Assembly: GCA_963833985.1 (NCBI GenBank)
Contig: CAWIAD010000001.1
Coordinates: 1,120,001-1,184,000 of the forward strand
Length of the DNA stretch: 64,000 nucleotides
DNA from: an uncultured Planctomycetaceae bacterium
GTDB taxonomy: Bacteria > Planctomycetota > Planctomycetia > Isosphaerales > Isosphaeraceae
Direction of reading: 5' to 3'
This document shows, piece after piece, positions 29,134-49,390 of this stretch. How positions within the stretch are numbered: position 1 is the first letter of the stretch; every line of letters begins with the position of its first letter. A model generated the notes under the pieces. The model did no database searches. It was not told the origin of the DNA and was given only the letters and a program-made list of their open reading frames with translations. The position numbers were made by a program, and so were the translations under genes.

Positions 29134-30288
29134 ATGAACACTTTTGAACGACCGGGCGTCATCAGCGACCTGAAGATCAAGGATGTCGAGGCCATCTACG
29201 TGCGTCTCCCGGAGGTGAAGTCTCAGTGTGACAGCGGTCAGGACGCACTGATCGTGAAGGTGACGACCGACGCCGGCATCGTCGGCTACGGCGAGGTGGA
29301 CTCCGCGCCCCTGGCCGTCAAGGGAGCCATCGAGGGGCCGTTCTCGCACACGGTCACCACCGGCCTGAAGCACCTGCTGATCGGCGCCGATCCGTTCCAG
29401 ACGGAATACCTCTGGCAGAGGATGTACCGGGCAAACATTTACTCCGGCCGGCGCGGGATCGCCATCCACGCGATGAGCGGCATCGACCTGGCGCTCTGGG
29501 ACATCAAGGGCAAGGCCCTGGGCCTGCCCGTCTGGAAGCTGCTCGGCGGCGGCTTCACGCGGACGCTGCGGCCGTACGCCAGCTCGCTCTTCGGCGCCAC
29601 GCCACATGAAACCGGTGAAAGGGCTCGCAGGTTTGCTGCGCAGGGTTTCACGGCGGTCAAGTTCGGCTGGGACCCGATGGGCCGCGACGCCGCCACCGAT
29701 GTGGCCCTGGTGTGCGAGGCCCGCACCGGGCTGGGACCCGAGCTCGACCTCATGATCGATGCCGGCCTGGCCTTTGATGCCAAGACGGCCATCCAGCGTG
29801 CCCGGGCTTTCGAGCCGTACAACCTGTTCTGGCTCGAGGAGCCGCTTGCCCCCGACGATTACCTTGGCTATGCCAGGCTGGCCGCGGCCACGGACCTGCG
29901 GATCGCGGCCGGCGAGGAGGAGAGCGAACGGCGCTCGTTCCAGCACCTCATGGATGTTGGAAAGATCGACGTGGTCCAGGTGGACCTGACGCGCTGCGGC
30001 GGGTTCACCGAAGCCATGAAGATCGCCTCACTGGCCGCGGACCGCGGCCTGCCGGTGGTCAACCACGGCTTCACCACCTATCTCAACGTCGCGGCCGCGC
30101 TCCATTTCCTGGCGAGCATTCCCAACACGCTGGGCCTGCTCGAGTTCGTCGCGCAGCAGGGGACGGACCTGCGCCACGAGATCAGCGAGCCGATCCGCGC
30201 CGTCGACGGCCGCGTCGCCGTTCTCGACGCGCCGGGCCTGGGAATCGAGGTCCACGAGGAGGGCCTTCAGAAGCTCCGGGTCGCCTGA
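29134..30288 (+). CDS. Mandelate racemase / muconate-lactonizing (enolase superfamily) enzyme, probable sugar-acid dehydratase
   Basis: SGIDLALWDIKGKALGLPVWKLLGG, AVKFG, LMIDAG, WLEEP, AAGEE, PGLGIE. Confidence 0.93.
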   Translation: MNTFERPGVISDLKIKDVEAIYVRLPEVKSQCDSGQDALIVKVTTDAGIVGYGEVDSAPLAVKGAIEGPFSHTVTTGLKHLLIGADPFQTEYLWQRMYRANIYSGRRGIAIHAMSGIDLALWDIKGKALGLPVWKLLGGGFTRTLRPYASSLFGATPHETGERARRFAAQGFTAVKFGWDPMGRDAATDVALVCEARTGLGPELDLMIDAGLAFDAKTAIQRARAFEPYNLFWLEEPLAPDDYLGYARLAAATDLRIAAGEEESERRSFQHLMDVGKIDVVQVDLTRCGGFTEAMKIASLAADRGLPVVNHGFTTYLNVAAALHFLASIPNTLGLLEFVAQQGTDLRHEISEPIRAVDGRVAVLDAPGLGIEVHEEGLQKLRVA

Positions 30289-30847
30289 ACCACGGAGAAG
30301 AATATGAAGCGAATCAAACAACTAGTGTATGAAAACCACGGTCAACACGCAGGAAGGAGCGCAAGAGAGCATGGTTCGACTCTCTTTCCGGGTGGTTCGC
30401 TCTGACAGAAAGGCTGCGGAGAGCCAGGGCAGCGATCAACGTTTGCGGGCGTGGGCGCGCTGGCCCAGACCGAGCCCGATGCCGCTCACGCCCGGGAAGA
30501 GCTCGGCACCCGAGCCGACCGGGCCGCGGTGTTCGGCCAGGTACTCCGTCGGGGAAAGCACCGGCTCGAGCCCGAGCCGCTGGCGCTGGCGCGGCGGTCG
30601 TAGAGGACGATGTTGACAGTTCCGGCAGGCTCGGTGTCGCCACGAACGGTGAGGTGGTCCGTCCTGTGTGCGGGATCCGCTCCTCGACGCCGGTGTGCCG
30701 ATCGGCAGGCTCGCCAAGGCACCTCGCAACCAAAGCGTGCTCGCGAGATAATTGTCGCTCGGAGCTGCCGGGGACGGAGACGAACGCAGCGCCCGGGTCG
30801 CTCGGAAGGAGAACCACTTACGATCAACCTCGAAACGACACGATGCG

Positions 30848-32537
30848 ATGAACCCAATCGCCGATGACGTGACACCAGTCCAGCCGACGATCGACTATTC
30901 CACTGCACCGCCCGCCCAACCGCCGTGGCCGGCTGCGACTCCCCGATCTCTGGGCTCCGGGGAGAGTGCTGGATTGCCGCGGGTGGAAGTCGTGGCCGGC
31001 AGCGGCGTCCACATGTCCGAAGGGACGCGCTCGCTGCTGCACGTCCGCCTCCGTGCCGTTGCGCTGGCCATGTCGTGTGCCTTCGGCGCGTTCCTCGTGC
31101 GCGGCATCTGGATCGCCGGCCATTACCTGGACCCGTTCATCCTGTGCTTCCATGTGGCCGTCGTCACCGCCTTCGTCGCCAGTTTCATCGGCTTATCGGG
31201 CCAGCGACCCATCAGCCTGGGATCGCTGCGCACGCTGGAGCTGTTCCTGTTCGGTATGACGATCGCGTTCTTCGTGACGATCCACTATCGTCTGGTCCAG
31301 CTCCGCGCCGTCCAGGGTGACAGCGTCATGCTCATGGCGACCATCAAGAACACCGTCCTCTTCGTTTTCGCCATGATCGTCCTCTATGGCATGTTCATAC
31401 CGAATACCTGGCCGCGGGCCGCGGCCGTCGTCAGTACGATGCTCGCGGCGACACTTCTGAGCCCGCTTGCGCTGCGGGTCTTTCACCCCTCACTCTTCCA
31501 GTTCGCTGCCCCACTGCTGACGTTCGAGGTCGTCAGCGAGAACGTCCTGATGCTGGCGATCGGGGCCGGGGTGACGGTCTACGCCAGCCGCATCATTCAT
31601 TCGCTGCGCCTCGAGGTTTTTCAAGCCCGCCAGCTCAATCAGTACCAGCTCAAGGGACGGCTCGGCGCCGGGGGAATGGGCGTGGTTTACCTGGCCGAGC
31701 ACCAGTTGCTGAAGCGCCCCTGCGCCATCAAGCTCATCGCCGCTGACCGCGCTGGTGACCCGAAGGCCCTTGCCAGGTTCGAGCGCGAGGTGCGCACGAC
31801 GGCCCGGCTGTCACACCCCAACACCGTCGAGATTTACGATTACGGGCGAACCGACGACGGCACCTTCTATTACGTCATGGAGCTTCTCGACGGCCTGAAC
31901 CTGGCCGACCTTGTGGAACGCCACGGGCCGCTGCCGCCCGGCCGAGCCATCTTCCTGCTTCGCCAGGCGTGCGGTGCGCTGGGCGAGGCTCATGCCGCCG
32001 GGTTGGTGCACCGCGACCTGAAGCCTGCGAATCTCTTCGCCGCTCGCCGTGGCAACCTGTACGACTTCACCAAGGTTCTCGACTTCGGTCTCGTGTTGTC
32101 CCCGCCCAACCAGTCGACAGCCGAGTCCAGCCGCGAAAGTGACATCGCCGGCTCGCCCCTCTACATGGCACCAGAGCAGGCCACCGGCGCCTGCGCGGCC
32201 CGATGCTCGGGCCGACGTCTACGGGCTGGGCGCAATCGCCTATTACCTGCTGACCGGCCGCGCCCCGTTTGCCGGGCCAACCGCGATGGCCGTGATGATT
32301 GTCGTGGCGCGCGACCCTGTCGAGCCTCCATCCCGTCACCGGCCTGGGCTTCCGTCCGACCTGGAACGCATCATCCTGCGCTGCCTGGCCAAATCCCCCG
32401 AGGAACGCTATCCGGACGTTGCTGCCCTGGACCACGAACTCGCCGGCTGCGCCGCCGCCGGCGAGTGGAGCTTCGACCGCGCCGCCGCCTGGTGGAAGGC
32501 TCAGGGTGGCATGACTGCCAGATGCAGGGGCGGGTGA
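30848..32537 (+). CDS. Membrane-anchored Ser/Thr protein kinase (frameshift near 32190)
   Basis: N-terminal TMs; LGAGGMGVVY, AIKLI, HRDLKPAN, DFG, YMAPEQ. DVYGLG..ERY lies in ORF 32049-32537. Confidence 0.93.
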
Positions 32538-33014
32538 TTCGGGGCTGGAAGAGATCGCATGATGGGCCGTGGAGTGCGAACGTCCCGCGGCGCGGCCACG
32601 ACCATGCCGAGCCAGAAACCTGGGATGATGCGATGGCGCTGGCCGAACCAGTCTGTCTGGCCAGAAGTTGCGGCCGGCGGACCTGCACCACTCCCTGCGT
32701 GAGGGATCCTTGGTGTAATTCCGCCTGTCAGGCGGCCAGGGCGAGGCATTACCATAAGCCGCAAGTGTTCAGCACTTGCGGCATTCCTCAGCTCCCGGCG
32801 ACGCGGGAGTCGAGCGGACCGGGATCCGATGAACCGCAATTAATTCACGATGCCTTGACTCCCAAGCGGACTTGACTTAAAAATGATACGATGCAGCAGA
32901 CGGCGCAAGATTAAGATCCGTTAACGATTGTCATGGATTGGCAGTTCCTATCATTCTCTGGCGAATGCGATTCATGGGGATGATCATTGACGGAGCGTTG
33001 TTTTCCGTAGAGGA

Positions 33015-33574: not shown

Positions 33575-34823
33575 ATGAATCCGATCAAGTTCGCCAGGCG
33601 ACGACCCGTCACGACTCTCATACTCATCGCCGTGCTGACAAGTGGTGGCTTCCTGGGATTGTCCAAGATGCGGGCCGATACCTTTCCGGAACCCAGTTCG
33701 CCTCAAATCCACAGCTATCTCGACTCTTTTGGCATGTACGCCAGGCGGGTGAAAAACTACGCCGCTCGCCAGTATGCGTCCTACTCCCAGGGGCACGAGA
33801 AGGTGCACCAGGAGGAGGAACGTAAGATCGTGGTCACCAGCCCGAAAGTAATGGACGTCACCGTCACCCAGCCGTTTGTCTGCCAGATCCATTTCGAAGC
33901 AGCACATCGATGTTTGTGCGATGGAGAATGGTTATCTCCTGGAGATCCCGGTGAGTGAGGGCCAGATGGTCAAGAAGGGCGACTTGATGTTCAAGCTCCT
34001 ACCGGTTGTGTACACGGCAAAACTGGACGCCGAGCTGGCCGAAGCCCGGCTGGCAGAGCTGGAATACAAGAACACCGAGAGTTTGTTCAGGAAACAGGCA
34101 GTCGTCTCTCAGAATGAGGTGCTCTTGTTCAAGGCCAAGCTGGACAGGGCGAGGGCCAAGGCAGACCTGGCACGGGCCGAATTGGCCTTCACGGAGGTCA
34201 GAGCACCTTTCGAGGGTATTGTCGACCGCAGGCATGAGCAGCTCGGTAGCCTCATCAAGGAGGGGGACATACTCACGACCCTGTCGGACAACAGTGTGAT
34301 GTGGGTCTATTTCAACGTCACCGAGGCGCAGTACCTCGAATACAAGGGCCTCCCGGATCAGGACAAGAAGGATCAGAAGATCAAGCTCAAACTGGCGAAC
34401 GGGACCATCTTCCCGGTCACCGGCGCAATCGGTGCGATCGAGGCTCAGTTCAACAACCAGACCGGGAACATCGCGTTCCGGGCGGATTTTGCGAACCCGG
34501 AGCGTCTGCTGCGCCACGGTCAGACGGGCACCATTCTCATCAGCAGGACGCTCAAGGATGCACTGGTGATCCCGCAACGGGCGACGTTCGAGATCCTCGA
34601 CAAGCGATACGCCTGGGTCGTCGGCGAGGACGACGTGGTCCATCAGAGCCTGATCACCATCAAGCACGTGCTGGACGATATCTTCGTCATCGACAGCGGA
34701 CTCGAAGTGAAAGACAGGATCGTGCTGGAAGGAGTTCGAGAGGTTCATGACGGCGAGAAGGTGAAATACGAGATTCGTGAGCCGGACGAGGCCCTCAAGA
34801 ACCAGAAGTTTCACGCGGAATAG
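33575..34823 (+). CDS. RND efflux periplasmic adaptor (MFP), frameshift near 33895
   Basis: GYLLEIPVSEGQMVKKGDLMF, TEVRAPFEGIV, TGNIAFRADFANPERLLRHGQTG. Confidence 0.93.
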
Positions 34824-34876
34824 CTTTTTCTTACGGGTATTCTCGCCACCGACCTCGACGAGCCAGTTCCCGAACC

Positions 34877-37800
34877 ATGTTCACAAGAATCCTCCACCGG
34901 CCGGCGTTTGCGATCGTTCTTTCGATCATCATCCTCTTCCTGGGAGTGATGGGGATCAAGACTCTGCCGATCGCGCAGTTCCCCGACATCGCACCGCCCA
35001 CCGTGATGGTTTCCATTTCTTATCCCGGCGCCAGTGCCAATGTGCTGGTGGAATCGGTTCTGATTCCGCTGGAGCAATCCATCAACGGCGTCCAGAACAT
35101 GCGCTATATCTCGTCTTCCGCGACGAGTGCCGGCGAGGCGGCGATCATCATCTACTTCGAGCCGGGCACAGATCCAAATATCAACGTGGTTAACGTACAG
35201 AACCGGGTGAACATCGTCCTCTTTCAGCTTCCACCCCTGGTGGTGCGGGAGGGGATCCTTGTCAGCCAGGTCGTTCCTAGTATGCTCATGTACGTGAATA
35301 TCTACAGCACGGATCCAAACGCCGATCAGAAGGACCTCTTCAACTTTGCCAACGTCTACGTCATGCCCCGGCTGAAGCGCATCAAGGGGATGGGCATCCC
35401 CAGGAATCTCGGCAACCGCATCTTCGCGATGCGGGTCTGGCTGAATCCGGATCGCATGCGCGCCTACAGCCTTTCCTCCGACGATGTCATGAAGGCGCTG
35501 TCAGAGCAAAGCATCATAGGTTCGCCCGGTCGACTCGGCCAGGCCACGGGGAAAACGTCTCAATCCAAGGAATACGTGCTGACCTACATCGGACGCTTCA
35601 ACAAGCCAGAGCAGTACGGAAATATCATTCTGAAAGCGAATCCCGACGGGGAGATCCTGCGAATCAAGGACGTCGGTGAAGTGGAGCTGGGGCCTCAATT
35701 CTTCGACATTTACTCGGATATCAACGGGCACCCCGCGGCGTCCGTCGTGCTCAAGCAGGCTCCCGGTTCCAACGCCGCCGAGGTGATCGAGGCGATCAAG
35801 ACGGAGCTTGAGCTGATCAAGAAGGAATCGTTCCCCACCGGCATGGACTACGAATTCGCCTACGACGTCTCCAAGTTCCTCGACGCCTCGATCGAAAAGG
35901 TGCTGCACACCTTGCTCGAGGCGTTCATACTTGTGTCGCTCGTTGTCTATATGTTCCTCGGGGATATACGATCCACGTTGATCCCGACGCTCGCGGTTCC
36001 GGTGTCCCTGGTCGGGACCTTCTTCGTCCTGCAACTCATGGGCCTGTCGATCAACTTGATCACGCTTTTTGCGATGGTTCTGGCGATCGGTGTGGTGGTC
36101 GACGATGCCATTGTGGTGGTCGAGGCCGTGCATGCCAAGATGGCCCAGAAGCACTTGTCTCCCTACCGGGCGACCATGGAGGTTGTGCACGAGATCTCTG
36201 GCGCCATCATTGCCATCACCCTCGTGATGACGTCCGTTTTCGTACCGGTGACGTTCATTCCCGGCGCAGTGGGCACATTCTACCGCCAGTTCGGGATCAC
36301 GATGGCCACCTCAATCATCCTGTCCGGACTGGTGGCCCTGACGCTGACGCCGGTCCTCTGTGCGATGATTCTCAAGCCCCACCCGCACACGGGCAATGGC
36401 AATGGCAATGGCAATGGCGACCACACCGACACCGATGAGCACACGATCACTGACAACGGCGTCAGCCACGAAGAAAAGCCGCACGGAATGGGACTCAAGG
36501 TGCTCTTTGCTCTGGGAGGGTTGCTTGTCCTGGGAGGAGTCACATACGTAGCCTACGAACTGTGGGGACCGATCGGATTTCTGCTCATTCTCCTGCCGTT
36601 CGTGCAGCGTCCTTTCGACCGCGCCGTGGAGAGGGTCACGGGCGGTTATGCCGCGATTGTGCGGGGGATCGCCACGCGACGCGTGTTCACCATGGCCGTC
36701 GTCGCGGCCTTTGCCGCCGGCATCGTCCTTGTCAACACGAAGCTCGCGACAGGCTTTATCCCCGGCGAGGACCAGGGCATCATCTACGCCGTGCTTCAAA
36801 CGCCTCCAGGCTCGACACTCGAGTACACCAACGACAAGTCCCAAAAACTCGAAACCATCGCCAAGCAGATCCCCGAAGTCACCTCGGTCACCTCACTGGC
36901 CGGTTACGAGGTCCTGACCGAGGGCCGCGGCTCGAACTCGGGAACCTGTATCATCAACCTGAAAACCTGGTCCGACCGAAAGCGGACCGCACGCCAGATC
37001 ATCATGGATCTCGAGGAAAAATCCCGTGAGATCAGCAACGTGAAACTCGAGTTCTTTGAGCCACCCGCCGTTCCCGGCTTCGGCACTGCCGGCGGTATCT
37101 CGATGCTCGTGCTGGACAAGACCTTCTCCGCGGATTACGTACGGCTCGGAGAAGTGACCGAGAAATTCATGGCCGCACTGAAAAAGCGCAAGGAGGTGAC
37201 GAACCTGTTCACCTTCTACGCCGCAAACTACCCGCAGTACGAACTGATCATCAACAACGACGTCGCCATGCAGAAGGGCGTGTCGATCAAGACCGCGATG
37301 GACAACCTCAACATCCTCATTGGCAGTACCTGGGAGCAGGGATTCATTCGCTTCAACCAGTTCTTCAAGGTATTCGTCCAGGCCAAGCCGGAGTTCCGAC
37401 GCTATCCGGAAGATCTGGACACCCTGTTCGTCAAGAACGACAAGGGGGAGATGGTGCCCTACTCGGCGTTCATGACGCGCGTCAAGAAACAGGGCCTGAA
37501 TGAGATCACCCGGTACAACCTCTACACTTCGGCCGCAATTCAGCTTGCACCGGCTCCGGGCTTCAGCACCGGGCAGGCAATCCAGGCAATCAAGGAAGTG
37601 GGCGCCCAGACGCTGCCTCGTGGTTTCGACGTCGGCTGGTCCGGCCTTTCTTACGATGAGTCAAAGAAGGGGAATGAGGCTGTTTACATTTTCCTCATAG
37701 TCATCGCCTTCGTCTATCTCGTGCTGATTGCCCAGTACGAGAGCTTCATCCTGCCTCTCGCCGTGATCCTTTCACTTCCGGTCGGGCTCTTCGGCTCCTT

Positions 37801-38263
37801 CCTCTGCTTGCAGGCCATGGGCCTCGCGAACGATGTCTATGCCCAGATTGGTCTGGTCATGCTGGTGGGTCTGCTGGGTAAGAACGCCATCCTGATCGTG
37901 GAATTCGCGGTCCAGAGACGACGGGAGGGGGTGTCTCTCTGGGATGCGGCGGTGGAAGGCGGAAAGTTGCGTTTCCGGCCGATTCAGATGACCTCCTTCG
38001 CCTTCATCGCCGGCCTCCTTCCGCTGGTCGTGGCCACCGGCGCCGGGGCGATCGGCAATCGAACCATCGGCACCACGGGAGCCGGCGGCATGCTCGTCGG
38101 CACGGTCTTCGGTGTCCTGATCATCCCGGGCCTCTACTACCTGTTCGGCCAGCTTGACGGCGGGCGCAAACTTCTCAAAGACGAGACCACTGAACCTCTC
38201 ACCGAGCGTTTCGGACACCACGAACACGTCGAGCACCACGAGCACCACGAAAACCACGAGTGA
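34877..38263 (+). CDS. RND efflux permease (HAE1/AcrB-like)
   Basis: RPAFAIVLSIII, QFPDIAPPTV, GVVVDDAIVVVE, GLLGKNAILIVEFA, RFRPIQMTS. Confidence 0.97.
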   Translation: MFTRILHRPAFAIVLSIIILFLGVMGIKTLPIAQFPDIAPPTVMVSISYPGASANVLVESVLIPLEQSINGVQNMRYISSSATSAGEAAIIIYFEPGTDPNINVVNVQNRVNIVLFQLPPLVVREGILVSQVVPSMLMYVNIYSTDPNADQKDLFNFANVYVMPRLKRIKGMGIPRNLGNRIFAMRVWLNPDRMRAYSLSSDDVMKALSEQSIIGSPGRLGQATGKTSQSKEYVLTYIGRFNKPEQYGNIILKANPDGEILRIKDVGEVELGPQFFDIYSDINGHPAASVVLKQAPGSNAAEVIEAIKTELELIKKESFPTGMDYEFAYDVSKFLDASIEKVLHTLLEAFILVSLVVYMFLGDIRSTLIPTLAVPVSLVGTFFVLQLMGLSINLITLFAMVLAIGVVVDDAIVVVEAVHAKMAQKHLSPYRATMEVVHEISGAIIAITLVMTSVFVPVTFIPGAVGTFYRQFGITMATSIILSGLVALTLTPVLCAMILKPHPHTGNGNGNGNGDHTDTDEHTITDNGVSHEEKPHGMGLKVLFALGGLLVLGGVTYVAYELWGPIGFLLILLPFVQRPFDRAVERVTGGYAAIVRGIATRRVFTMAVVAAFAAGIVLVNTKLATGFIPGEDQGIIYAVLQTPPGSTLEYTNDKSQKLETIAKQIPEVTSVTSLAGYEVLTEGRGSNSGTCIINLKTWSDRKRTARQIIMDLEEKSREISNVKLEFFEPPAVPGFGTAGGISMLVLDKTFSADYVRLGEVTEKFMAALKKRKEVTNLFTFYAANYPQYELIINNDVAMQKGVSIKTAMDNLNILIGSTWEQGFIRFNQFFKVFVQAKPEFRRYPEDLDTLFVKNDKGEMVPYSAFMTRVKKQGLNEITRYNLYTSAAIQLAPAPGFSTGQAIQAIKEVGAQTLPRGFDVGWSGLSYDESKKGNEAVYIFLIVIAFVYLVLIAQYESFILPLAVILSLPVGLFGSFLCLQAMGLANDVYAQIGLVMLVGLLGKNAILIVEFAVQRRREGVSLWDAAVEGGKLRFRPIQMTSFAFIAGLLPLVVATGAGAIGNRTIGTTGAGGMLVGTVFGVLIIPGLYYLFGQLDGGRKLLKDETTEPLTERFGHHEHVEHHEHHENHE

Positions 38264-38752
38264 CAGACATGCGAAGCGGTTGATGGCAATGCTGGTTGGC
38301 AGACACCGGCATTATCATATGAAGACGCAGTTGTGCATGCATATCTAAACGTTCATGACGGGATTTCACAGTGCCGGTCTCGCTGAGTCGCGCGACTTCC
38401 GTCGCTGGATTTCGCGCCGTTCTCCAATCCTTCTGTTCGTTCGCGCGGATTCTCGGACTTATCGGTACAACCGGTAAAGTTCTCCCCCCCTATCGGTCGA
38501 ATGTAGAGACTGGATCGTTCGCGCGGGACGTGCTGTTCGTCGTGCCGTCCAGCGTCGATTCTTCTTTCCCTCACGCGGGGCTGGAACCAGAGTTGCCGGT
38601 ATCCTGCGACGGAGCGAGGGGCCTGGAAAACTGATTTTCAGCCCGGGAGAGAAGAGTTTTCAAGGACCGGATGCGAACGCAATTGCCCAATTGTACACCG
38701 GTTGGCAAACGAACGCTGCTGATCCTGGTCCGGGACCTCAAGGACGAGGTTT

Positions 38753-40642
38753 ATGATCTTGCAGGAAGGCTGGTTACGCACGAAGCAGTTGAGGCGGGTC
38801 TCTACGATCGGCATCGTTTGCGGCTTTCTGCTGGTTTTGCCGTCGTGTGGAATCCCCGGGCTACGCCCTGCGGCTCCGTTACCAGCTCTACCGCAAGACT
38901 TTAACGGAGCGGCCAGCGAGGAGAACTCATCCCAGGTTCGGATCGAGGAGTTCTTCGATGATCCACTGCTGACACGTCTGATCAGCCAGGCCCTGGCAGG
39001 CAGCCAGGAGTTAAGAATCCTGAATGAGGACATCCAGATTGCCAATAACGAGGTTTTGGGTCGGTCGGGTGCGTATCTTCCCTTCGCTGGACTCGGAGGC
39101 AGCGCGGGACTGGAGAAGCTCAGCGGATTCACTCCTCTGGGAGCCGCTGAGCGGCAACTCGATTATCTTCCTGGCAAAGGATTTCCCGACTGGTCGGGCA
39201 ATTTTCTTCTGGCCGCCAACATTTCCTGGCAAGTGGACATCTGGAGGCAATTGCGGAATGCCCGGGACGCGGCGAAGCTGCGCTACTTTGCCACCAGTGA
39301 GGGGCGGAACTACACGGTGACCCGGCTCGTCGCGGAGGTCGCCGAAAATTATTATATGCTGATCGCACTCGATAAACGACTTGAAAACCTGGATAACATC
39401 ATTGCCCTTCAAACAAAAAGTCTCGAGATTGCCAGGGCGAAGAAGGAAGCAGCGCGCGGCAGCCAGCTGCCTGTCCTCCGCTTTCAGGCCGAGGTCGCCA
39501 GAAACCAGAGTGAAAAGCTCATCGTCAGTCAGGACATCGTCCAGGTAGAGAACCGTATCAACTTCCTCGTTGGTCGCTTCCCGCAGGCTGTCGAACGCTA
39601 CAAGGGGGATTTCATCAATCTGAACTTGCGTGCCCTGAGCGTTGGGCTCCCCATGCAATTGCTCCATAACAGGCCCGATATCCGTCAAGCCGAGCGTGAG
39701 CTGGCGGCGACCGGGCTCGACGTGAAGGTTGCCCGTGCCCGCTTCTTTCCGCAACTGGCCGTTGCGGGCCCCATTGGCCCCGCCGGGCCGTACAGCCCCA
39801 TCGGCTTCCAGGCTTTTAACCCGAGATATCTTTTCTTCACTCCAGAATCATTCCTCGCCAGTGTTGCTTTTGACTTTGTCGGCCCAGTCATCAACAGGAG
39901 GGCCATCCAGGCCGACTACCTGAGCGCGAACGCGCGGCAACTCCAGGCCGTTTACAATTACCAGCGCGTCATCCTGAACGCCTTTGCCGAGGTGATCAAC
40001 CGCATCTCGAAGGTGCAGAAGTACGGTAGGAGTATCGAGATCAGGAAGCAGCAGGTGCAATCGCTCGTGGCATCCGTCGAAGCCGCGAGCGACCTTTTTC
40101 AGAACCCCCGCGCCGGATTAGAGGTCGACTACCTGGACGTGCTCACCGCCCAGCGCGACCTCTGGGATGCCAGAAGGGTACTGATCGACACCAAGCAGGA
40201 GCAACTGTCTGCTGTCGTGAATGCCTATCAGGCGCTCGGCGGAGGCGGCTACCTGTTGCCGACGCCTCCTCCGAAACCGGTACACGGTCATCATTGGCGA
40301 AGCTACTGGGGGATCCCAAAACTGGGACATGCGGCTGCACCTCATCCGGGACCGCTCCCACCTCCGCCGCCGAACGGTCCAGCACCGCCTCCCGCATCGA
40401 CGCCGCCAGTTAATCCGGGACCGCTTCCCGTACCAGCACCGGCACCGCCCAGCGGTCCCGGACCATTTCCACCGGGGGCGCCATCAGGCGGTCCGGAGCC
40501 GCCTCCCGCGCCGGCTGCGGAAAAGCTTCCGGAACCGCTTGCAGCTCCGGAAAACGGAACAGGGGCAGCAGGAGGAACAGGCGCAGGAGCAGCAGGAACG
40601 GGGGCAGGAACCGTTCCAAATGGAGGTCAACCTCCGCGTTGA
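38753..40642 (+). CDS. TolC/NodT-family outer-membrane efflux lipoprotein with a Pro-rich tail
   Basis: LLVLPSC lipobox, FFDDPLLTRLI, SWQVDIW, NRPDIRQAE, YQALGGG. Confidence 0.93.
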   Translation: MILQEGWLRTKQLRRVSTIGIVCGFLLVLPSCGIPGLRPAAPLPALPQDFNGAASEENSSQVRIEEFFDDPLLTRLISQALAGSQELRILNEDIQIANNEVLGRSGAYLPFAGLGGSAGLEKLSGFTPLGAAERQLDYLPGKGFPDWSGNFLLAANISWQVDIWRQLRNARDAAKLRYFATSEGRNYTVTRLVAEVAENYYMLIALDKRLENLDNIIALQTKSLEIARAKKEAARGSQLPVLRFQAEVARNQSEKLIVSQDIVQVENRINFLVGRFPQAVERYKGDFINLNLRALSVGLPMQLLHNRPDIRQAERELAATGLDVKVARARFFPQLAVAGPIGPAGPYSPIGFQAFNPRYLFFTPESFLASVAFDFVGPVINRRAIQADYLSANARQLQAVYNYQRVILNAFAEVINRISKVQKYGRSIEIRKQQVQSLVASVEAASDLFQNPRAGLEVDYLDVLTAQRDLWDARRVLIDTKQEQLSAVVNAYQALGGGGYLLPTPPPKPVHGHHWRSYWGIPKLGHAAAPHPGPLPPPPPNGPAPPPASTPPVNPGPLPVPAPAPPSGPGPFPPGAPSGGPEPPPAPAAEKLPEPLAAPENGTGAAGGTGAGAAGTGAGTVPNGGQPPR

Positions 40643-40811
40643 TCACCCGTCGATGAGCGTTTTCTGCCTTCCGGTGGTGAGGCACGACGCTGATCTCACG
40701 CGCGTGCGATTGGTCCAACGGGGACTGCGGTCAGCTCGGCGGACGAGACTCGCAGTGGAATCTCAGGAGGCCGCGGAGGCAGTGGAGATCCACCAGCCTG
40801 CGCGAAGAAGA

Positions 40812-41390
40812 ATGGCACGCGAAGAATTGAATATAAGTAGATGTACCGTAACGTTGCACGTCGTGTCAAGTCTTGATGGCTTCATTGCCAGGCACGACAA
40901 CAGCATCTCGTGGCTCGACAATTCCGGAGACGTCTACGACGACGGGATTTCTGAAGCGAGTGCTGAAGGAATCGTCGAGGCTATCGACTGCTATGTGCTG
41001 GGATCGCGCACGTATGAGCACGCCCTTCAGCTCGGCTGGCCCTATGGTGATACTCCGACCGTGGTGGTCACCAGTAGAGAACTGCCGTCCACGAGGAAGA
41101 GCGTGGAGTTCTATTCGGGCGATCTCAAACGTCTGGTTGAGGACATACTCGCCCCCCGATATAGAAGCATCTGGCTTGTCGGAGGGGCCATGCTGTGCCA
41201 GAGTTTTCTCAGGCTGGACCTGGTGGATGAAATCAGATTGGCGGTCATGCCGGTCTTGCTGGGCGACGGCCTGCGCCTGTTCGGTCATTCCAGCACGGAA
41301 AGGCGATGGCGCCTGAAGGACGTCATCGCTTTCAAGACCGGAATCGTTGAGTTGGCGTATGGGCGCGAAACAAGCAGTTGCTCACCCTGA
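40812..41390 (+). CDS. Dihydrofolate reductase / RibD C-terminal family protein
   Basis: VSSLDGFIA, LGSRTYE, IWLVGGA, LVDEIRLAVMPVLLGDGLRLF. Confidence 0.92.
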   Translation: MAREELNISRCTVTLHVVSSLDGFIARHDNSISWLDNSGDVYDDGISEASAEGIVEAIDCYVLGSRTYEHALQLGWPYGDTPTVVVTSRELPSTRKSVEFYSGDLKRLVEDILAPRYRSIWLVGGAMLCQSFLRLDLVDEIRLAVMPVLLGDGLRLFGHSSTERRWRLKDVIAFKTGIVELAYGRETSSCSP

Positions 41391-41492: not shown

Positions 41493-42493
41493 TCATGGTG
41501 CATCACCGGGTGGCCGTTCGGGATTCGGCGTGGGAACGAAGCTGCGACGCACGGCCGGGGAGAAGCCAAGGCCGGTGGTCAGCGAGATGGCCACCGTGGC
41601 CGTCTCGACCTTCTCGGGCACGGTCATCCGGAGAGTGCAGGTCTCGAGCTTGCTGGCAAGCTGGTAATACGTCTGGTGCAGCGACCCGCTCGAGCCCGAC
41701 CCGCTCTGTCTCGCCTGGACTGGCTTCCCGTCAGTCCCGAGGAAAGCGATGTCTCTCACCCCCATCAACGGACCCTGATGGAACAGGACAACCTGTGTTC
41801 CCTCTTGCGCGCCTTGCCGCAGGCCCATCATCTCGTCTTCATCGGACAGACTGGCGATGATCATGGGAAACGGACTCGTGGTGATCTTGTCCAGCTTGAG
41901 ATTCACGTTCTTCTGCTCCACCTGCTTTTCACCCTGAAGATACGCCAGAACCAGGCTGGCCTCGATGCGAATCGTGTTTGCGCCGCTTGCCGGTAACTGG
42001 GCCGAATGTATTGTGACGGTCGCGCGATGGCCTCCAGGATCGACGTCCGCCTCGAAAGTCGGTTCCATCACCCCGGGCGGCAGCAGGCCATTTCCCTGTG
42101 CAGCGTCCAGGTTCTCGAGCAGGTTGGTGCCCCGGTCGTCGGTCAGCCGTGTGAGCCGGCATTCTTTGGTCCGGACGCTCTGGATCAGCCGATTCGGCTC
42201 GTCCACCAGGAAGGTGAGAGTCGTGCCTTCTCTCGGCACAGCCTGGTTCCCGAAGCCCATGGGCGCGGAAACCTGGCTCGAGGACCTGTGTGCGGAGGCT
42301 CCGGCTTGACCAGGTGCAGACGCAGGAGCGTGACCCGGGGCGGGCCCTTGAGGCTCCGGGAATCCCCGGCCTCGGCCGGCGGTTCCGGATGCGATTTCGA
42401 GAGCTGGGCCTCGAGGACCGGCGACATCGTAGCCAGCCAGGCCGCCACTCCGGTCACGATTCCAGGTGCGCACCAGCGTGCTGAATGGCTCAT
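41493..42493 (-). CDS. Hypothetical secreted protein (frameshift near 42295)
   Basis: Signal-like MSHSARWCAPGIVTGVAAWLA in one frame; body LTRLTDDRGTNLL..ISLTTGLGF in ORF 41493-42575. Confidence 0.65.
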
Positions 42494-42897
42494 GTTCACT
42501 CCCGCCTTGATTGTGCACGTTCCGGGCGATGTCTGCCGCAGCCACCACAGACATCGCTGAGTATACCCGGCGCATCCCGTCGCAACTTCAGGAGATTCTC
42601 GAGCAGATGAGGACCAAGGCGAGTTTCGGGGACACCCGACGTGCTTGCTCATCGCCAGGGTCCGCTCAAGATCTCGCGAACAGGCGCTCGGAGAAACTGC
42701 GGCACAGGCGCTCCAGCTCCAGATCGCTGAGTGTTAGCTCGGCGAGGTGGCGGACAGCGGGAGCCCAACCACGGGACACACAGAAGGTACGGATCAAAGC
42801 AGACAGTGCGATACGAGTGCTTAATAGTGGATCTTTGATGGGCGTATAGAACGCACCTATACTGAGTCATTGACTCTCGGTCTTGTCGGATCGGGAC

Positions 42898-43018: not shown

Positions 43019-43057
43019 CCAATTTCCTTCTGCTGTGGATGTGTCCCATGCCCCGGT

Positions 43058-43420
43058 TCACGCGCGGACGAACTGGTGTCGTGGCAATCTTCGCACCAGG
43101 CGCTTCGGCTCCAGGACGCGGAGAGTTAGCTCGGCGGGATGACGGACGGGGGTCTCGTCGGGGGCGGTGTGGAGCTCGCGGACCAGGGGGCCAAGCTCTT
43201 CGAGGATGTCGTCCACCGTTTCGACGAGCCTGCCACCGTCACGGATGAGGCGATGGCAGCCGCGACTCGTGATGCTGTCGACGGGGCCCGGGACGGTGAA
43301 GACCTCGCGGTTCTGCTCCATGGCGTGGTGCGCGGTGGAGAGCGAGCCGCTCTTCGGGGCGGCCTTACCGTGATTACGCAAATACCGAAGCATAACGTAT
43401 GAAGTTTACGCTGCGGAAAC
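43058..43420 (-). pseudogene. dprA: dprA 3' fragment, copy C (degenerate 5' part, internal in-frame deletion)
   Basis: [60 protein letters not shown]; degenerate FPQR..LCFG upstream. Confidence 0.92.
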
Positions 43421-44134
43421 TGGCCAGACTTGCTATGGACGGGATTCGAATCCCGATTTGAATCGGGAAAGTCGCCGGTGGTTCACCCGCTCAGGAGTTT
43501 GTCGATGCTGGCGGGCACGTTAAGTCGAAGCGGTGAATCCGTGGCTTCCAATCGACCACCACGAATTCGTGAGCCGCTTCATGATCGTTCAACACCAGCG
43601 TACAGGGGTTGTCCAACTTGAACGAGATAAGTACCTCATCGCGTCGTATGGTGCACCGGACCAGAGGACACCTGTGCAAGGATTTGTCCTCGGTATTCGC
43701 TCCGGGTTGTGATTGACCCCATGCCGCGAGACTCAGGCGGACCACATACCGCGATGCGGAGATAGGTAGGATGTCTCAGCAAATCGGCGGCACCAGCCAC
43801 CGGCCGGTCAACCGCATGTCGTTTTGACAGTTCCGGTCGACGCGATCGGTGTCGCGTTAAAGCCACGGTGTAGCCAAAAAACAACCTGAACCAGCCATCC
43901 GGCCCTCAGAGTGCGAAAAAACGCGTGAATGCCTGGAATGAATCACCGCCCATCGCTAAGCTTCCTGGGTCTACATGCCTCAACTCAGATTAAGTGCGAC
44001 TCGCATAGCCGTCAGATCAAGTCATGGTGCCCTACGCCCTCCCTGTCATTGGGACATGGTAAGCGGAGACAGAGCGCGATCCAACTGTCGAATCCCCAGC
44101 AGAGGGGGATGTTGCAAAATGTGAGAGGTATCTC

Positions 44135-44770
44135 ATGAAACGGTCAGTGTTGTGGGCGGCGGTTCTGCTCATCGGAGCACTGGAGGAATCAAAGGCGGGG
44201 GAGATCTACTGGCCCGTGACAGGTCAGTCGTATCCTACACCCACGGGCCCCTTTCTTACCGTTCCGTATGACGCGACACTTTTCTTGCAGCCAGTCGGCG
44301 GCAGCGCGGGTGCCATTACTGAGTTTGGAATTGGCACGTCAATTCAGGACCATATTGCTTACTTCACTGGCTTGCCCTTCAATCCGAGCCCACCCGGCGC
44401 AGTCGAGGTGGGTTATGTCACTGCGGGAACCAGCCTCAATTTTTACGAGAAGTCAGACTGGCTGGGCGGCACGTACTGGGCGTTCTCCAACCAGTATGCG
44501 ACGGACCTTGCTTCCTTCATTGCATTCTGGGATCCGACCCTGAGTTTTAGTTCCACCGGGAGTATTGTCCAGCAAACCAGCCCCACGACGTGGGTGCTGC
44601 ACCTGGATGATGCCGCGTCCTTTCTTGTAGATGATAATAACTACGACGTGTTGATGCAGGTGACTCTGATCCCCGCTGCCGTACCCGAACCCTCGTCCCT
44701 GAATATGTTCATCGTCTCGCTTCTCGGATCGATCGGTTTTGCCTGGCGACGTCGGAAGCAGCTTGCTTGA
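44135..44770 (+). CDS. PEP-CTERM surface protein
   Basis: GAGAGG RBS, signal peptide, AVPEPSSLNMFIVSLLGSIGFAWRRRK. Confidence 0.9.
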   Translation: MKRSVLWAAVLLIGALEESKAGEIYWPVTGQSYPTPTGPFLTVPYDATLFLQPVGGSAGAITEFGIGTSIQDHIAYFTGLPFNPSPPGAVEVGYVTAGTSLNFYEKSDWLGGTYWAFSNQYATDLASFIAFWDPTLSFSSTGSIVQQTSPTTWVLHLDDAASFLVDDNNYDVLMQVTLIPAAVPEPSSLNMFIVSLLGSIGFAWRRRKQLA

Positions 44771-45234
44771 AACCGAATGGTCGGAGTGACCAGGACTGCC
44801 AGTGTCAATCAACTTTCACAGTGGCGTTTTCTGCCGTCCAGTGAGAAACGGTACGGACGTCAGTGAATCGCAACGGAGGTCACTGGGTGTGACGACGGCC
44901 TGCATTCGTTCCTGGTTTAATGTAGACGGGGACATTGCATTGCGGGTGTCTGGGTGTGGGGGATGCCAGTTCGTTGTTTTGGTTGCAACTTGCATTTGGA
45001 AAAGGCACCGAGGTACTCGGCGGAGTGCCGCGGCGGCGCCACCTTGCACCTGCAAAAAACCTCGCCGTCGCGTGAGCCAACGCCCGGCGGAGTATTGTTG
45101 ACCGTAGTGAGGGCCATGAATGCTCGATCGACAAACTTGCACAGTTTGTCGCGACCAGGACCGAACATCGCTCGGGTCCGGCTCTGGCGTGTTCCGGGGA
45201 CGCTTTGGAAAAATCAAAGCCCGGCCTGCGGAGG

Positions 45235-45705
45235 TCATGCTCGCACGAATTGGTGGCCGGGAAGCCGGCGCACCAGGCGTTTGAGCTCCAGGACGCTCAA
45301 TGTCGCCATGACCTGCGAGGCGGTGAGTCTGGTGGCCGAGATCAGCTCGTCCACCCCGACAGGATGGTTGTCGAGCTGGCCCAGCAGCGACCGCTCCTGA
45401 TCGCTGAGAGCGAGCTCGGCGGGATGACGGACGGGGGTCTCATCGGGGGCGGTGTGGAGCTCGCGGACCAGGGGGCCAAGCTCTTCGAGGATGTCGTCCA
45501 CCGTTTCGACAAGGCGCGCGCCGTCGCGGATGAGGCGATGGCAGCCGCGGCTGGCGATGCTGTCGACGGGTCCGGGGACGGCGAAGACCTCGCGATTCTG
45601 CTCCATGGCATGATGAGCCGTGGAGAGCGAGCCGCTCCGCGGGGCGGCCTCGACCACGACCACACCAAGACATAAGCCGGAAATGATGCGGTTGCGCTGG
45701 GGAAA
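45235..45705 (-). pseudogene. dprA: dprA 3' fragment, copy B (156 uninterrupted codons from FPQRNRII to the stop)
   Basis: About 15 aa differences from the C-terminal 156 aa of the intact DprA (manual count); the 5' half of the gene is absent. Confidence 0.95.
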
Positions 45706-45862
45706 CCGGCCAGACTTACTAGTGGTGCATGTGCCCGGCTGAGTGTACCGATGTTGCCAGTAGCGGGCGCGGCGGCGACCGCTGGGGAAGCGGGTCTACG
45801 TGGCGCGAGGGTGCCGCTGGCGATGCAGCCACTACCCCAGGCGCCAGGCTGATGTCCAAGCC

Positions 45863-45922
45863 TAGGGAGTTGCATATAGTATCCCCGGAACATAGGGAGT
45901 TGCGTATGGTGTTTCCGGAACT
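45863..45922 (+). repeat. Two tandem 30-bp copies of the GTATGGTGTCCCCGGAAC-type motif
   Basis: TAGGGAGTTGCATATAGTATCCCCGGAACA / TAGGGAGTTGCGTATGGTGTTTCCGGAACT. Confidence 0.85.
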
Positions 45923-46223
45923 TCCGGAACATCTCGAGGAGATCGGAGGGCTTGGTAGCGAGAACCGGTGTACGATTCCCATTTGTTGCTTGGCTGATAA
46001 CAGAGATTCCGATATAATTTAGTGGGCCAGCGTGCTCCGGTACTGTCCTCCGTGCCCCTGCTGTTCAGCTTGCCATCTTCCAACCAAGAGATCGGGCACC
46101 TCTCATGTCGCAGCCGATTGGGGGAGCGATTCGCGGCGGCAACGGCTCCGCTCCAGCCGACGCTTCCCCATCCCGTGGTGAAGCCGCTTCGTCCAAGGAA
46201 GTGCATTTCTAAGGGGACCGACC

Positions 46224-47318
46224 ATGGACATTTCTTATGCGATGGCGATCGGAATCATCGTCGCCTCAGTATTTGGGCCAGGTGAAGATCTCTCGACAGA
46301 GGCAAAGAAAGCCCGCGAGAAGGACTATCACGAGTTTCTTCTCACGTACTTCAACCGTACTGGAGGAGAACAACGGGGCTGGACATCTTACGCGCCGCGC
46401 TTCCTTGAATTTGCTGAACGCGTCCCTGAGGACGAAGTCGGGTTTGACGCGTCGCAATGGATCGTCAGGTGGGATCCCGTAGGGAACGGGAGATCTGAAA
46501 GGGCTCTGTCTCTGCTAGCAAAGCATCATTATAGTTGCAGCCACAGAGACCTAATTCGACTCCTCGTCTCCCCGAAGTTCTTTGGAGTTGGTTCAGATAA
46601 TGTGGTCCATGTGCTTCGGTCGATTGCTGGTGCTGACCGAAAGAACAAACAAGTCACTGCCGAGGCCTCTCTGGCCATTGCTCAGTTCCTTTTCAACCGA
46701 GCCGAACTTGTTCGCCTAGTAAAAGCAGATCCCGGCGGCTCCCTCGCTCGCAGCCTTGAGGGCTGGTATGGAACATCTTATGTGGCCGACCTTCGGTCTC
46801 GCGACCCCAATGCCGAGAAAGCCAGCGGGCAATCGTGCTTTGAGCAAGCGCGAAAACGATTCCCGGAATTCATCAAGAGCCACTGCAGCTATGGAGACTC
46901 GTCGAAACACACGGTGGGACTGGACATCGATGGAAAGATTCTAAAGCTTGCCGATTACGACGACAGAGTCGTGGTGATTTGCTTTTGGGGGCAATCATGC
47001 CCGCCCTGCAGGGAGATGATTCCTTCGGAAAAAAAGCTCGTAGCTCGCATGAAGGACAAGCCATTCACCTTGCTTGGCGTGGCCTGCGATGCCGACATGC
47101 AGAGCACCAAGACGTACATCATAAAAAACGGAATTACATGGAAAACATGGTGGGACGGCGGCCCCACTCATCCAATCCTCGAAGAGTGGGATGTCCGCGA
47201 GCTTCCAACTGTGATCGTGATGGACAGTCAGCACGTGATCCGATATCGGGACATTCGAGGCGAGGAGCTTGAAGCGGCCGTCGTCTCATTGCTGGAAGAG
47301 GCCAAACTCCCGCATTAG
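46224..47318 (+). CDS. TlpA-family thioredoxin-like protein with N-terminal helical extension (lower GC)
   Basis: GLDIDGKILKLADYDDRVVVICFWGQSCPPCREMIP..WDVRELPT; AAGGGG RBS. Confidence 0.9.
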   Translation: MDISYAMAIGIIVASVFGPGEDLSTEAKKAREKDYHEFLLTYFNRTGGEQRGWTSYAPRFLEFAERVPEDEVGFDASQWIVRWDPVGNGRSERALSLLAKHHYSCSHRDLIRLLVSPKFFGVGSDNVVHVLRSIAGADRKNKQVTAEASLAIAQFLFNRAELVRLVKADPGGSLARSLEGWYGTSYVADLRSRDPNAEKASGQSCFEQARKRFPEFIKSHCSYGDSSKHTVGLDIDGKILKLADYDDRVVVICFWGQSCPPCREMIPSEKKLVARMKDKPFTLLGVACDADMQSTKTYIIKNGITWKTWWDGGPTHPILEEWDVRELPTVIVMDSQHVIRYRDIRGEELEAAVVSLLEEAKLPH

Positions 47319-47376
47319 TTATTTTAGCGTCATAGAACACGCCGACCGAATCGCGGTTTGCCTCGCGCAGCTGATG

Positions 47377-47747
47377 TCAACTGCCCTTGCGGTTAACCCG
47401 GATCGAGAGGTATCTGAAAACACCACCGGCCGCCAGGGCAGTCATGGCACCAAGAAAGGACCAATACGACATCGGCGATAATGACGACGAGCTCTGATCG
47501 CTTCGGATTTCCGGCAGTCCGAAGGAGGCGAGTGTGAATCGTGCCTGGTCGGGCGAGCGTAGTTCGTCAAAATCGAGGAAGTTGAAGGTATGAAGACCGT
47601 CAGGGGAATCTATAGTGGCAGTTACTGGGCGAGGTATTGATCCGTCGTGTGGGTGCTGGAATTCGGTCACCCCATGAATGGTCTTGCCCTTGAAGGTCCG
47701 GGACAGATTGCTCTCATACTCCTTGATCACCCAAGCCTGATCGGCGA
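47377..47747 (-). pseudogene. 5'-truncated C-terminal fragment of a membrane-anchored protein
   Basis: Open frame ADQAWVIKEYE..FTLASFGLPE..YWSFLGAMTALAAGGVFRYLSIR* begins exactly at the repeat motif. Confidence 0.7.
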
Positions 47748-47772
47748 GTTCCGGGGACACCATACTCAATTC
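47748..47772 (-). repeat. Inverted copy of the GTATGGTGTCCCCGGAAC motif
   Basis: + strand GTTCCGGGGACACCATACTCAATTC; 21/25 match to the reverse complement of 45897-45921. Confidence 0.85.
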
Positions 47773-47789
47773 TTGCCGCCATAGGGAGG

Positions 47790-47960
47790 TCACGCCCGCA
47801 CAAACTGATGCCCCCGGCAATCGTCGGACCAGGCGTTTTAGCTCCAGCACGCTGAGCGTCGCCAGGACCTGCGAGGCGGTCAGTCCGGTGCGGACGATCA
47901 GCTCGTCGAGGCAGAAGGGTGCACTTGCAAGCGGGCCCAGGAGCGAGGCTCCTGATCGCC
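47790..47960 (-). pseudogene. dprA: dprA 3' fragment, copy A (last ~56 codons, degenerate)
   Basis: [45 protein letters not shown], then HQFVRA* in a shifted frame. Confidence 0.9.
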
Positions 47961-48193
47961 GGGGAGCCGATACGACGACGAAGCGAGATTCAACATCGAC
48001 TCGCCCCCGTTGCTGCATCCTGTTTAAAACTAGAAATGATGTGATATGCAGAACAGAAGATAGTAGTATGTACATGCGATGCTGTTAGCCAGACTGTCTG
48101 AGTACTCCCGATAGATGCATGCAAGCATTTTGTGGTTCATACTCTACACTTTCGAAAACCCCGCTTGGGCGGGAATCGGTCTGGGTGGCGATT

Positions 48194-49390
48194 CTACGCC
48201 CGGATGAACTGGTGGCCGGGGAGGCGGCGGACCAGGCGCTTGAGCTCGAGTACGGAAAGGGTTGCCAGGACCTGAGATGCAGTGAGCCCCGTGCGGACGA
48301 TCAGCTCGTCGACGCCGGAGGGTGCACTTTCAAGCTGGCCCAGGAGCGACCGTTCCTGATCGCTGAGGGCCAGCTCGGCGGGATGGCGGACAGCGGGCTC
48401 ATCGGGGGCGGTGTGGACCTCGCGCACCAGCGGTCCCAGCTCTTCGAGGATGTCGTCGACGGTTTCCACGAGCCGTGCACCGTCGCGGATCAGGCGATGG
48501 CAGCCGCGGCTGCACAGGCTGTCGACCGGGCCGGGGACGGCGAAGACCTCGCGGTTCTGTTCCATCGCGTGGTTGGCCGTGGAAAGCGAGCCGCTCCGGG
48601 GCGCCGCCTCGACCACGACGACGCCAAGACATAAACCGGAAATAATGCGATTGCGCTGCGGGAAGAGGCCGGCGATGGGGCCCTGGCGCATCGGCAGCTC
48701 GGAGAGGACGGCGCCGCGGGCGGCAACCTCGTTGGCCAGCTCGCCGTGCTCGGAGGGGTAAACCTGCTCCAGGCCGTTGGCCAGCACCGCGATCGTCCGG
48801 CCGCCGGCCTTCAGCGCGCCGCGGTGCGCGGCCGCGTCGATGCCGCGAGCCAGGCCAGAGACGATCGTGAAGCCGGTCCGCGCCAGCGACGCGGCCAGCT
48901 TCTCCGCGATGCGCAGGCCGTACGGGGTGCATCGCCGCGAGCCCACCAGGGCGATGGCAAGCTGGTCGCGCGGCTCGAGCGTGCCGCGCACGTAGAGCAG
49001 GGCGGGCGGGTCGGGGATCTCCAGCAGGGGAGGCGGATAGGGCGGATCGCCACGCGGGAGCAGATCGACGCCGTGCTGGCGGCAGAGCGCGATCTCGACC
49101 GCGGCGTCCAGCTCCTTGCGGGCCTGATGGACCTTCTCGGCCACTTTCGGGCCGATACCGGCCACGCCCCGGAGCGCGGAGAGCGAGGCGTCGAGAACCC
49201 GGCCGGCCGTTCCGAATCGCTCCAGCAGGGCACCAAAGAGGTGCGGACCCACGCCGGGCACGAGCGTGAGCAGGATCAGGTCACTCAGGTCGTCGGGTGT
49301 TGCAGGCCGATCCAAGTCACGCTCCGGTCGTGGAGTACAGTGGTCGTCAGGTCCGGCGATCGACGGAGATCGAGGAGATCGACTGGTCAC
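48194..49390 (-). CDS. dprA: DNA-processing protein DprA (intact)
   Basis: ALVGSRRCTPYG, IVSGLARGIDAAAHRGAL, FPQRNRIISGL, VVEAAPRSGSL, C-terminal winged helix. Confidence 0.98.
   Translation of the reverse strand: MTSRSPRSPSIAGPDDHCTPRPERDLDRPATPDDLSDLILLTLVPGVGPHLFGALLERFGTAGRVLDASLSALRGVAGIGPKVAEKVHQARKELDAAVEIALCRQHGVDLLPRGDPPYPPPLLEIPDPPALLYVRGTLEPRDQLAIALVGSRRCTPYGLRIAEKLAASLARTGFTIVSGLARGIDAAAHRGALKAGGRTIAVLANGLEQVYPSEHGELANEVAARGAVLSELPMRQGPIAGLFPQRNRIISGLCLGVVVVEAAPRSGSLSTANHAMEQNREVFAVPGPVDSLCSRGCHRLIRDGARLVETVDDILEELGPLVREVHTAPDEPAVRHPAELALSDQERSLLGQLESAPSGVDELIVRTGLTASQVLATLSVLELKRLVRRLPGHQFIRA
48624..48653 (-). other. Candidate tyrosine-recombinase core (att/dif-like) site inside dprA
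   Basis: Minus strand CAATCGCATTA-TTTCCGGT-TTATGTCTTGG. AT-rich codon run in a GC-rich gene, coinciding with the start of copy B (45665-45694). Confidence 0.55.

Follow-up and report, generated by a model that had tools for sequence, protein, structure and literature searches.

Stacked, displaced 3′ ends of dprA and comEC in planctomycete genomes and their possible origin from IS1-type elements

A stack of displaced dprA ends

We analyzed a 64,000-nucleotide stretch of DNA from an uncultured Planctomycetaceae bacterium (the window; G000:C1:1120001-1184000), in which an intact dprA gene is followed by a stack of displaced copies of its own 3′ end. About 25 kb separate dprA from its ancestral downstream neighbour, and at least five displaced dprA ends lie inside. 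This neighbour stands directly after dprA in two congeners (G002 and G012), and its displacement to about position 23084 thus means that ~25 kb have been added behind dprA. The stack consists of the following features.

48194..49390, minus strand: intact dprA, 398 amino acids, PF02481 and PF17782
48652..48659, minus strand: putative target 8-mer, gene nucleotides (nt) 732-739, codons P243-N246, where the displaced ends begin
48086..48105, minus strand: weak arm trace upstream of remnant A, 14/21 bases matching arm C
47790..47964, minus strand: remnant A, gene nt ~1023 to end, frameshifted, 80% nt identity
45701..45725, plus strand: arm B, a conserved end motif foreign to dprA, interpreted as what remains of a transposon right end
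45235 to about 45700-45711, minus strand: remnant B, nt 721 to end, 82.5% nt and 89% amino acid identity, open frame
43415..43438, plus strand: arm C
43058 to about 43414-43425, minus strand: remnant C, nt 721 to end, with an internal deletion of ~1026-1128
42669..42761, minus strand: remnant D, carrying the deletion of remnant C
32643..32664, plus strand: arm E, decayed
32554 to about 32642-32648, minus strand: remnant E, gene nt ~733-827, decayed, start as in B and C (E-value 2e-11)
30617..30718, minus strand: remnant E′, gene nt ~1048-1149 (E-value 4e-8), either the rest of E or an older end
22305..23084, minus strand: ancestral downstream neighbour of dprA

The matches of copies A, B and C are far beyond chance (nhmmer E-values 1e-138 to 1e-34); the search for D, E and E′ used a profile built from 29 dprA ends of the family. 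An earlier reading made from the sequence alone (the initial annotation) had reported the intact gene with three same-strand partial copies, A, B and C, set apart by AT-richer DNA, with B and C starting at the F-P-Q-R codons. Coordinates and homology were confirmed, the alignment places both starts at these codons, and GC content is 0.52-0.60 in the spacers vs 0.68-0.75 in dprA and upstream of it. The three copies are real, but D, E and E′ had been missed, and the insertion reaches ~23084. In remnant C, the first ~50 nt are scrambled. At 43370-43410 its opening ~45 nt have been swapped for an unrelated AT-rich stretch of nearly equal length, and damage right after the junction is also strongest in several other dprA remnants. 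Short imperfect repeats, presumably of a type common in these genomes, lie between C and D (42900-43050). A profile search also revealed an ectopic, decayed dprA piece (G000:C2:3951370-3951532, L051), which starts near the same gene position; two Y1 transposase open reading frames (ORFs) in tandem lie 3.3 kb away.

A fixed start site and a conserved arm

Eleven remnants, from seven genomes and one metagenome contig, begin at gene nt ~720-733 behind a ~25-nt arm that is not dprA sequence; these junctions were picked for that start position. Identity of the arm across genomes is 0.50, compared with a shuffle mean of 0.28 (maximum 0.33 of 10,000) and 0.29 for the native upstream sequence. GGAAAC opens five of the 11 arms. 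The target 8-mer was placed by the junction alignment and by a breakpoint between two congeners (G003 and G006, see below), from which we infer its exact boundary.

Upstream of remnant A the traces are weak. The sequence GAAATGATG occurs at 48033-48041 and at 45680-45688, and the copy upstream of A is a weak sign; the arm trace at 48086-48105 has a shuffle p of 0.012, a level reached by one of the four arms tried. Right after the dprA stop, at 48170-48193, 12 nt identical to the arm of G023 are followed by a small hairpin, which is possibly a further eroded arm, or chance.

Two other readings of the arm and site were rejected. The arm is not a dispersed repeat: none of 11 pattern matches across 121 genomes was another true copy, a 14-mer of it was as frequent as controls, and the top matrix match lies inside a response-regulator gene. 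Reading the AT-rich site codons as dif/Xer failed on spacing, as judged by eye from the consensus, and GC skew indicated no terminus.

Remnants as former working genes

Measured against the intact gene of the same host, dN/dS is 0.10 for remnant B and 0.14, 0.06, 0.10 and 0.09 for four other well-preserved remnants (dS 0.24-0.75); the values for orthologs are 0.05-0.17. The decayed remnant C and the remnant of G007 give 0.21-0.28. The remnants evolved as working genes, and a long target duplication of the host's own gene is ruled out by dN/dS. Remnants of G007, G008, G011 and G031 pair with their own intact dprA (support 97-100). A single crossover at the site was observed between the intact dprA genes of G003 and G006, which differ at 1/164 sites up to nt 731 and at 25/256 from nt 732 (Fisher p 4e-5), while the DNA upstream of dprA is 96-98% identical. 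The proposal of successive gene-restoring events at one site was supported.

Arrays at dprA and comEC in relatives

The dprA 3′ part was matched in 112/120 family genomes. Extra dprA 3′ ends were present in six of the 11 congeners with dprA (G001, G003, G005, G007, G008 and G011); two have empty sites (G002 and G012), and three (G006, G009 and G010) have cargo and no remnant detected in the stretches examined. Outside the genus, remnants were found in three (G023, G024 and G031) of 34 family genomes whose dprA surroundings were examined. Unit number and cargo vary between genomes, and some cargo is common to different species. The variable cargo and unit number that the initial annotation had suggested looking for among relatives are there, as are empty sites, and its reading of successive integrations withstood the observations it had named as refuting. 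The last remnant usually abuts the neighbour where the latter is on the contig (G001, G003, G005, G011, G024 and G031); this is not the case in G000. A minimal unit was seen in G008 (L039:7056-7240), with ~175 nt from the dprA stop to the next arm.

In a metagenome scan, one of seven matches was a true dprA junction. The metagenome contig L116 (1-1486) carries the G011 arm without any difference, together with the beginning of a dprA end, which is interrupted by an inserted element that we take to be IS630-like. A DprA_WH search of 401 genomes across the phylum revealed no tandem array in the 10 multi-hit genomes examined, and no element bearing a dprA end was found in viral, phage and plasmid collections.

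The annotation had proposed a dprA-targeting system. Repeated events at dprA are supported, but the system is not dprA-specific, and the stacks at comEC are larger. Behind comEC of G000 (C2, end 3101871), the DNA is low in GC and carries two displaced ends as well as a paralog of the RND pump; G011 has four displaced comEC ends. Matches to the comEC tail in 22 family genomes numbered 16 in G010, six in G008, five in G009 and two each in G005, G006 and G012, with at most one in each of 13 genomes outside the genus; the stretches examined in G002 and G031 held no displaced comEC ends. At the PHHG codons, the starts of 17 comEC junctions from five genomes fall within a span of 13 nt, each preceded by an arm that is conserved among them (8.85 vs a shuffle maximum of 3.29). 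The dprA arm and the comEC arm of the genus differ, and the two have only an inner C(C/T)ACT box in common with each other and with IS1 ends (5/11, 14/17 and 7/12 vs 1-2% background, for a motif chosen after seeing the data).

The comEC region of G000 (C2:3091000-3102000; L196, L243) also contains a Y1 (RAYT-like) transposase ORF amid tandem repeats and a toxin-antitoxin-like pair, named by eye. The PF03772 match of comEC lies in two frames, which is either an assembly error or real damage. An IS1-like copy beside comEC of G011 proved to be an ordinary multicopy insertion sequence (IS) with other ends.

An IS1-family transposon that splits comEC

Among 401 genomes of the class, five candidates outside the family were examined, three of which were paralogs. 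G289 has one displaced dprA end, and G261 has four tandem ends of ~150 nt, each behind a conserved arm. The ends of G261 are 92, 86, 88 and 84% identical to the intact gene, with mostly synonymous changes, and two units retain tails of an IS1-like DDE transposase that are 75-80% identical to the enzyme of G859. The five congeners of G261 have one dprA match each. An exact scan of the GTDB collection with the G261 arm gave four loci. Two are arrays of displaced comEC 3′ ends, and no dprA was seen at the remaining two.

In G859, a 6,428-bp element sits in comEC at codon 768 of 833 and splits the gene. Its inverted repeats agree at 14/14 positions, it comes with an 8-bp duplication, and it encodes a PF03400 transposase, which reads in two frames in the assembly. 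Four clear comEC remnants and a decayed fifth follow the intact element. Units 1 and 3 have one junction in common, and each retains DNA with homology to the right-hand portion of this element; units were thus also copied as units. In G860, comEC is whole and followed by two units and the same downstream neighbour as in G859. Targeted disruption is hence seen directly in G859, and the restored state with stacked units in G860 and in the window.

The IS1 origin is plain for G859 and strongly implied for the arrays of G261 and G860. For the window stack we infer it from the arms, since G000 has no such transposase and a search for a left end or a split dprA in 15 genomes and in G000 gave none. 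Tested against genomic 27-mers, arm B resembles the right ends of G859 and G261 with p 0.003 and arm C with p 0.017; arm E shows no likeness. The mean of the 11 arms against IS1 ends is 7.08, and the null maximum was 7.16 in 20,000 draws.

Complete IS1-family cargo elements of 2.7-3.4 kb with GGTAGTG-type ends and 8-bp duplications were observed in four family genomes (L228, L230, L232 and L233), as far as checked at sites other than dprA and comEC. A single-ORF IS1 subgroup with passenger genes exists, presumably named ISMhu11. The splits seen in G063 and G087 are contig breaks.

Proposed explanation and alternatives

We hypothesize, with a probability of roughly 0.55, that target-specific IS1-type elements cut competence genes, that recombination restores these genes, and that units of 3′ end, cargo and right end pile up behind them. 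An IS1-family cargo transposon would first enter a fixed site near the 3′ end and split the gene, as seen in comEC of G859. Recombination would then import a working 3′ end from a close relative, replacing the left end and the transposase, so that the old 3′ end would remain, displaced, along with the cargo and the right end. The resulting unit, bounded by direct repeats of the gene end, could be copied, exchanged among relatives and inserted anew. Either homologous recombination or a one-ended reaction of the transposase at the end/target junction could do this, with the gene always left whole. The arms before B, C and E would be relic right ends of such elements, the enzyme in the window's family would have been of the IS1 type, and TIRYT-type repeats and other mobile DNA may have brought in cargo secondarily. 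With no such transposase left in G000, the window stack would now be passive. A bolder version is that an IS1-related lineage is programmed, via its variable outer end, for dprA and comEC, and that its right ends act as a transposase-free platform for gene capture, much like integron landing pads; we hold this as tentative. Small units with the 3′ end of a competence gene would then move between species, insert exactly at the site and restore the gene, which, taken together with the platform, we regard as rather doubtful.

Several observations weigh against the IS1 hypothesis. No IS1-like transposase was found in 30 comEC loci, nor in the window or G000 save for one N-terminal piece, and a disrupted dprA or a left end was found neither in the 15 genomes searched nor in G000. 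The comEC arm of the genus mismatches the outer part of the G859 end. Only four of the 11 dprA arms singly resemble IS1 ends at p<0.05, the pooled arm test overstates the likeness because the arms are kin, and in a looser test against IS1 ends the score of arm B was equalled by two of 24 unrelated junctions. Many dprA remnants start elsewhere, at nt ~920-1130; these may be eroded or of other origin. Remnant B pairs with C, and the intact dprA of G000 is not sister to them. The breakpoint at nt 732 concerns one pair; across 136 pairs the breakpoints were scattered, in a scan confounded because the 3′ half is more conserved in general. A further difficulty is how a cell without DprA or ComEC would repair the gene. 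Finally, downstream copies of 3′ ends were found at 43 of 5,525 rough ORFs in G000, some of them spurious ORFs or internal repeats, so displaced ends alone are ordinary in this genome. The window arms also represent one end only, with no partner inverted repeat found in G000.

This last count favours an explanation with no dedicated element, by which homology-anchored illegitimate recombination acts genome-wide and one old dprA junction was inherited and multiplied by unequal recombination. Among 25 of the 43 cases inspected, 24 were genes other than dprA without the dprA arm; remnants follow the host phylogeny, and related tandem units occur in G005, G008 and G031. We nevertheless consider it improbable: the same design, with a fixed site and its own arm each, recurs in more than one family and at two genes linked in function, such a site holds an intact transposon, and a copy dead from birth would not yield dN/dS near 0.1. 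What sets dprA and comEC apart is the number of ends, their single site and their common arm, at two genes for transformation; comEC had been expected on the basis of other genomes before it turned up in the set of 43 (0.8% of ORF calls). About equally improbable is that another site-specific recombinase, host-encoded or RNA-guided, uses the arms, with IS1 likeness confined to G261, G859 and G860 and the family arrays convergent. The dprA and comEC arms of the genus do differ, their terminal bases resemble native sequence just upstream of each site, as expected of a core homology or a guide, and arrays in the window's family hold no IS1; against this stand the inner box and GG terminus common to the arms and IS1-type ends, and the fact that no candidate enzyme was found.

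The initial annotation favoured an e14/icd-type mechanism, in which tyrosine-integrase islands bring a replacement 3′ end. Such islands, decayed to cis-mobilizable elements (CIMEs) and stacked by accretion, would explain the restored gene with a displaced 3′ fragment downstream in the same orientation, the fixed site, the formerly functional ends and the crossover at the site, a combination that PMC4383910 gives as an island signature; tandem members without integrase are known (PMC3146451 and PMC5704250). However, Pfam and profile searches of all dprA and comEC arrays examined turned up no tyrosine recombinase, and the 13 PF00589 matches of G000 all lie far from dprA. A conserved arm is present, and no cognate integrative and conjugative element or integrative and mobilizable element (IME) with an integrase was found. 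No phage or plasmid record with a dprA end was found. At such a site, the only intact element found was a DDE transposon of the IS1 family, which interrupts the gene and brings no replacement end. The mechanism first proposed is not supported, and we judge integrase islands unlikely, slightly more so than the two preceding alternatives; that the units are non-autonomous or eroded is supported. Least credible of all is an assembly chimera of dprA alleles from several strains. G000 has 3.9% contamination, but the copies are 12-20% apart, unequally decayed and joined to non-dprA arms, and the arrangement recurs in independent assemblies with short and long contigs.

Comparison with known systems

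The stack is real and combines known kinds, IS1 cargo transposons and accretion arrays, in a new form. The element of G859 and four elements in the window's family resemble IS1-family passenger transposons in their PF03400 DDE enzyme, GG-initial inverted repeats, 8-bp duplication and passengers. Classical IS1 has low target specificity. Here, one site in a competence gene is reused, and the right-end piles are each tied to a formerly functional gene end. Like IS26 translocatable units, which arise via targeted conservative insertion, the arrays have unique segments between directly oriented IS-derived sequence; high frequency in IS26 requires intact transposase genes (PMC4196232 and PMC7986276). 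Unlike them, the units here keep one ~25-nt end and no whole IS; a transposase tail is the most that is left of the enzyme. They also contain the end of a host gene, by which the target is restored. With integrase islands and CIME accretion they share a whole gene upstream, displaced 3′ fragments downstream and integrase-less tandem members (PMC4383910, PMC5704250 and PMC3146451), but no member here has an integrase, and units go down to ~0.5-0.65 kb. The repeats measure 150-470 nt, whereas 8-60 bp is stated for IMEs.

AbaR islands in comM are a further parallel, in which a transposon targets the natural-transformation machinery and rescue by recombination is discussed (PMC11472951). In contrast, the targets here are dprA and comEC, the enzyme is IS1-like and not Tn7-like, restoration is repeated and the record is layered. 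TIRYT elements resemble the redoxin cassette of the window, where consensus inverted repeats bracket the cargo (bioRxiv 10.1101/279083), but they form a separate, dispersed repeat family that is nested in the stack and does not mark the dprA junction. Full-text literature searches gave no paper on elements that target dprA or comEC in this way; target lists of TIGER, outside that scope, could include them. PMC5704250 and PMC12884075 do not mention dprA, and a search combining Planctomycetes with natural transformation, dprA and competence found no paper.

If the proposed explanation is true, the conflict of mobile DNA with natural transformation is recorded at dprA and comEC in layers that can be dated. 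Hosts keep rebuilding both genes, which argues that these matter in this group. The explanation also offers an enzyme and a site that can be tested, namely an IS1-family transposase whose targeting appears sequence-specific, and suggests a route to cassette arrays that island finders requiring an integrase would miss.

Cargo and other gene-end copies

The following genes and repeats lie between and beyond the remnants in the window.

47745..47773, minus strand: TIRYT-like repeat, the genome's best copy, inverted relative to the 45866-45924 pair
47377..47766, minus strand: ORF of 129 amino acids without Pfam match
46224..47318, plus strand: TlpA-like redoxin, PF00578/PF08534
45866..45924, plus strand: two TIRYT-like repeats that close the redoxin cassette
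44135..44770, plus strand: PEP-CTERM protein
41493..42575, minus strand: 360-amino-acid protein without Pfam match
40752..41390, plus strand: RibD_C-family protein
33876..40642, plus strand: RND efflux system
30752..32875, plus strand: Ser/Thr kinase ORF, between E and E′
23290..30288: older inserted genes with host-like GC (enolase-superfamily protein, MFS transporter, PIG-L deacetylase and two unknowns)

This cargo (redoxin, PEP-CTERM, RibD-family, RND pump, kinase and metabolic genes) is unrelated to mobility. A homolog of the 360-amino-acid protein (66%) sits before the last dprA remnant in G011, and a paralog of the RND efflux system (76-78%) lies in the comEC stack of G000 (C2:3090092-3094402).

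For dozens of other genes in G000, 0.3-5 kb of extra DNA separates the gene from a downstream duplicate of its 3′ end. These duplicates are often 85-100% identical and have no common end motif; examples are C2:375239, C2:834325 and C2:258243. We read these copies as a general gene-end-duplicating route of gene gain.

The inverted repeats of the redoxin cassette fit the TIRYT consensus GGGG[AT][CG]A[CG] (bioRxiv 10.1101/279083). By Pfam, no Y1 transposase lies between them, and the contents are the redoxin and the 129-amino-acid unknown. The repeat was rejected as an attachment (att) site, being dispersed and absent from the dprA junction. TIRYT-like repeats occur in 30/121 family genomes, with 0-86 copies each and often as divergent pairs; in G003, a Y1 transposase gene adjoins one. 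At 481-486 kb of G010:C32 (L151), TIRYT-like copies follow each other every 1-2 kb, like a cassette train.

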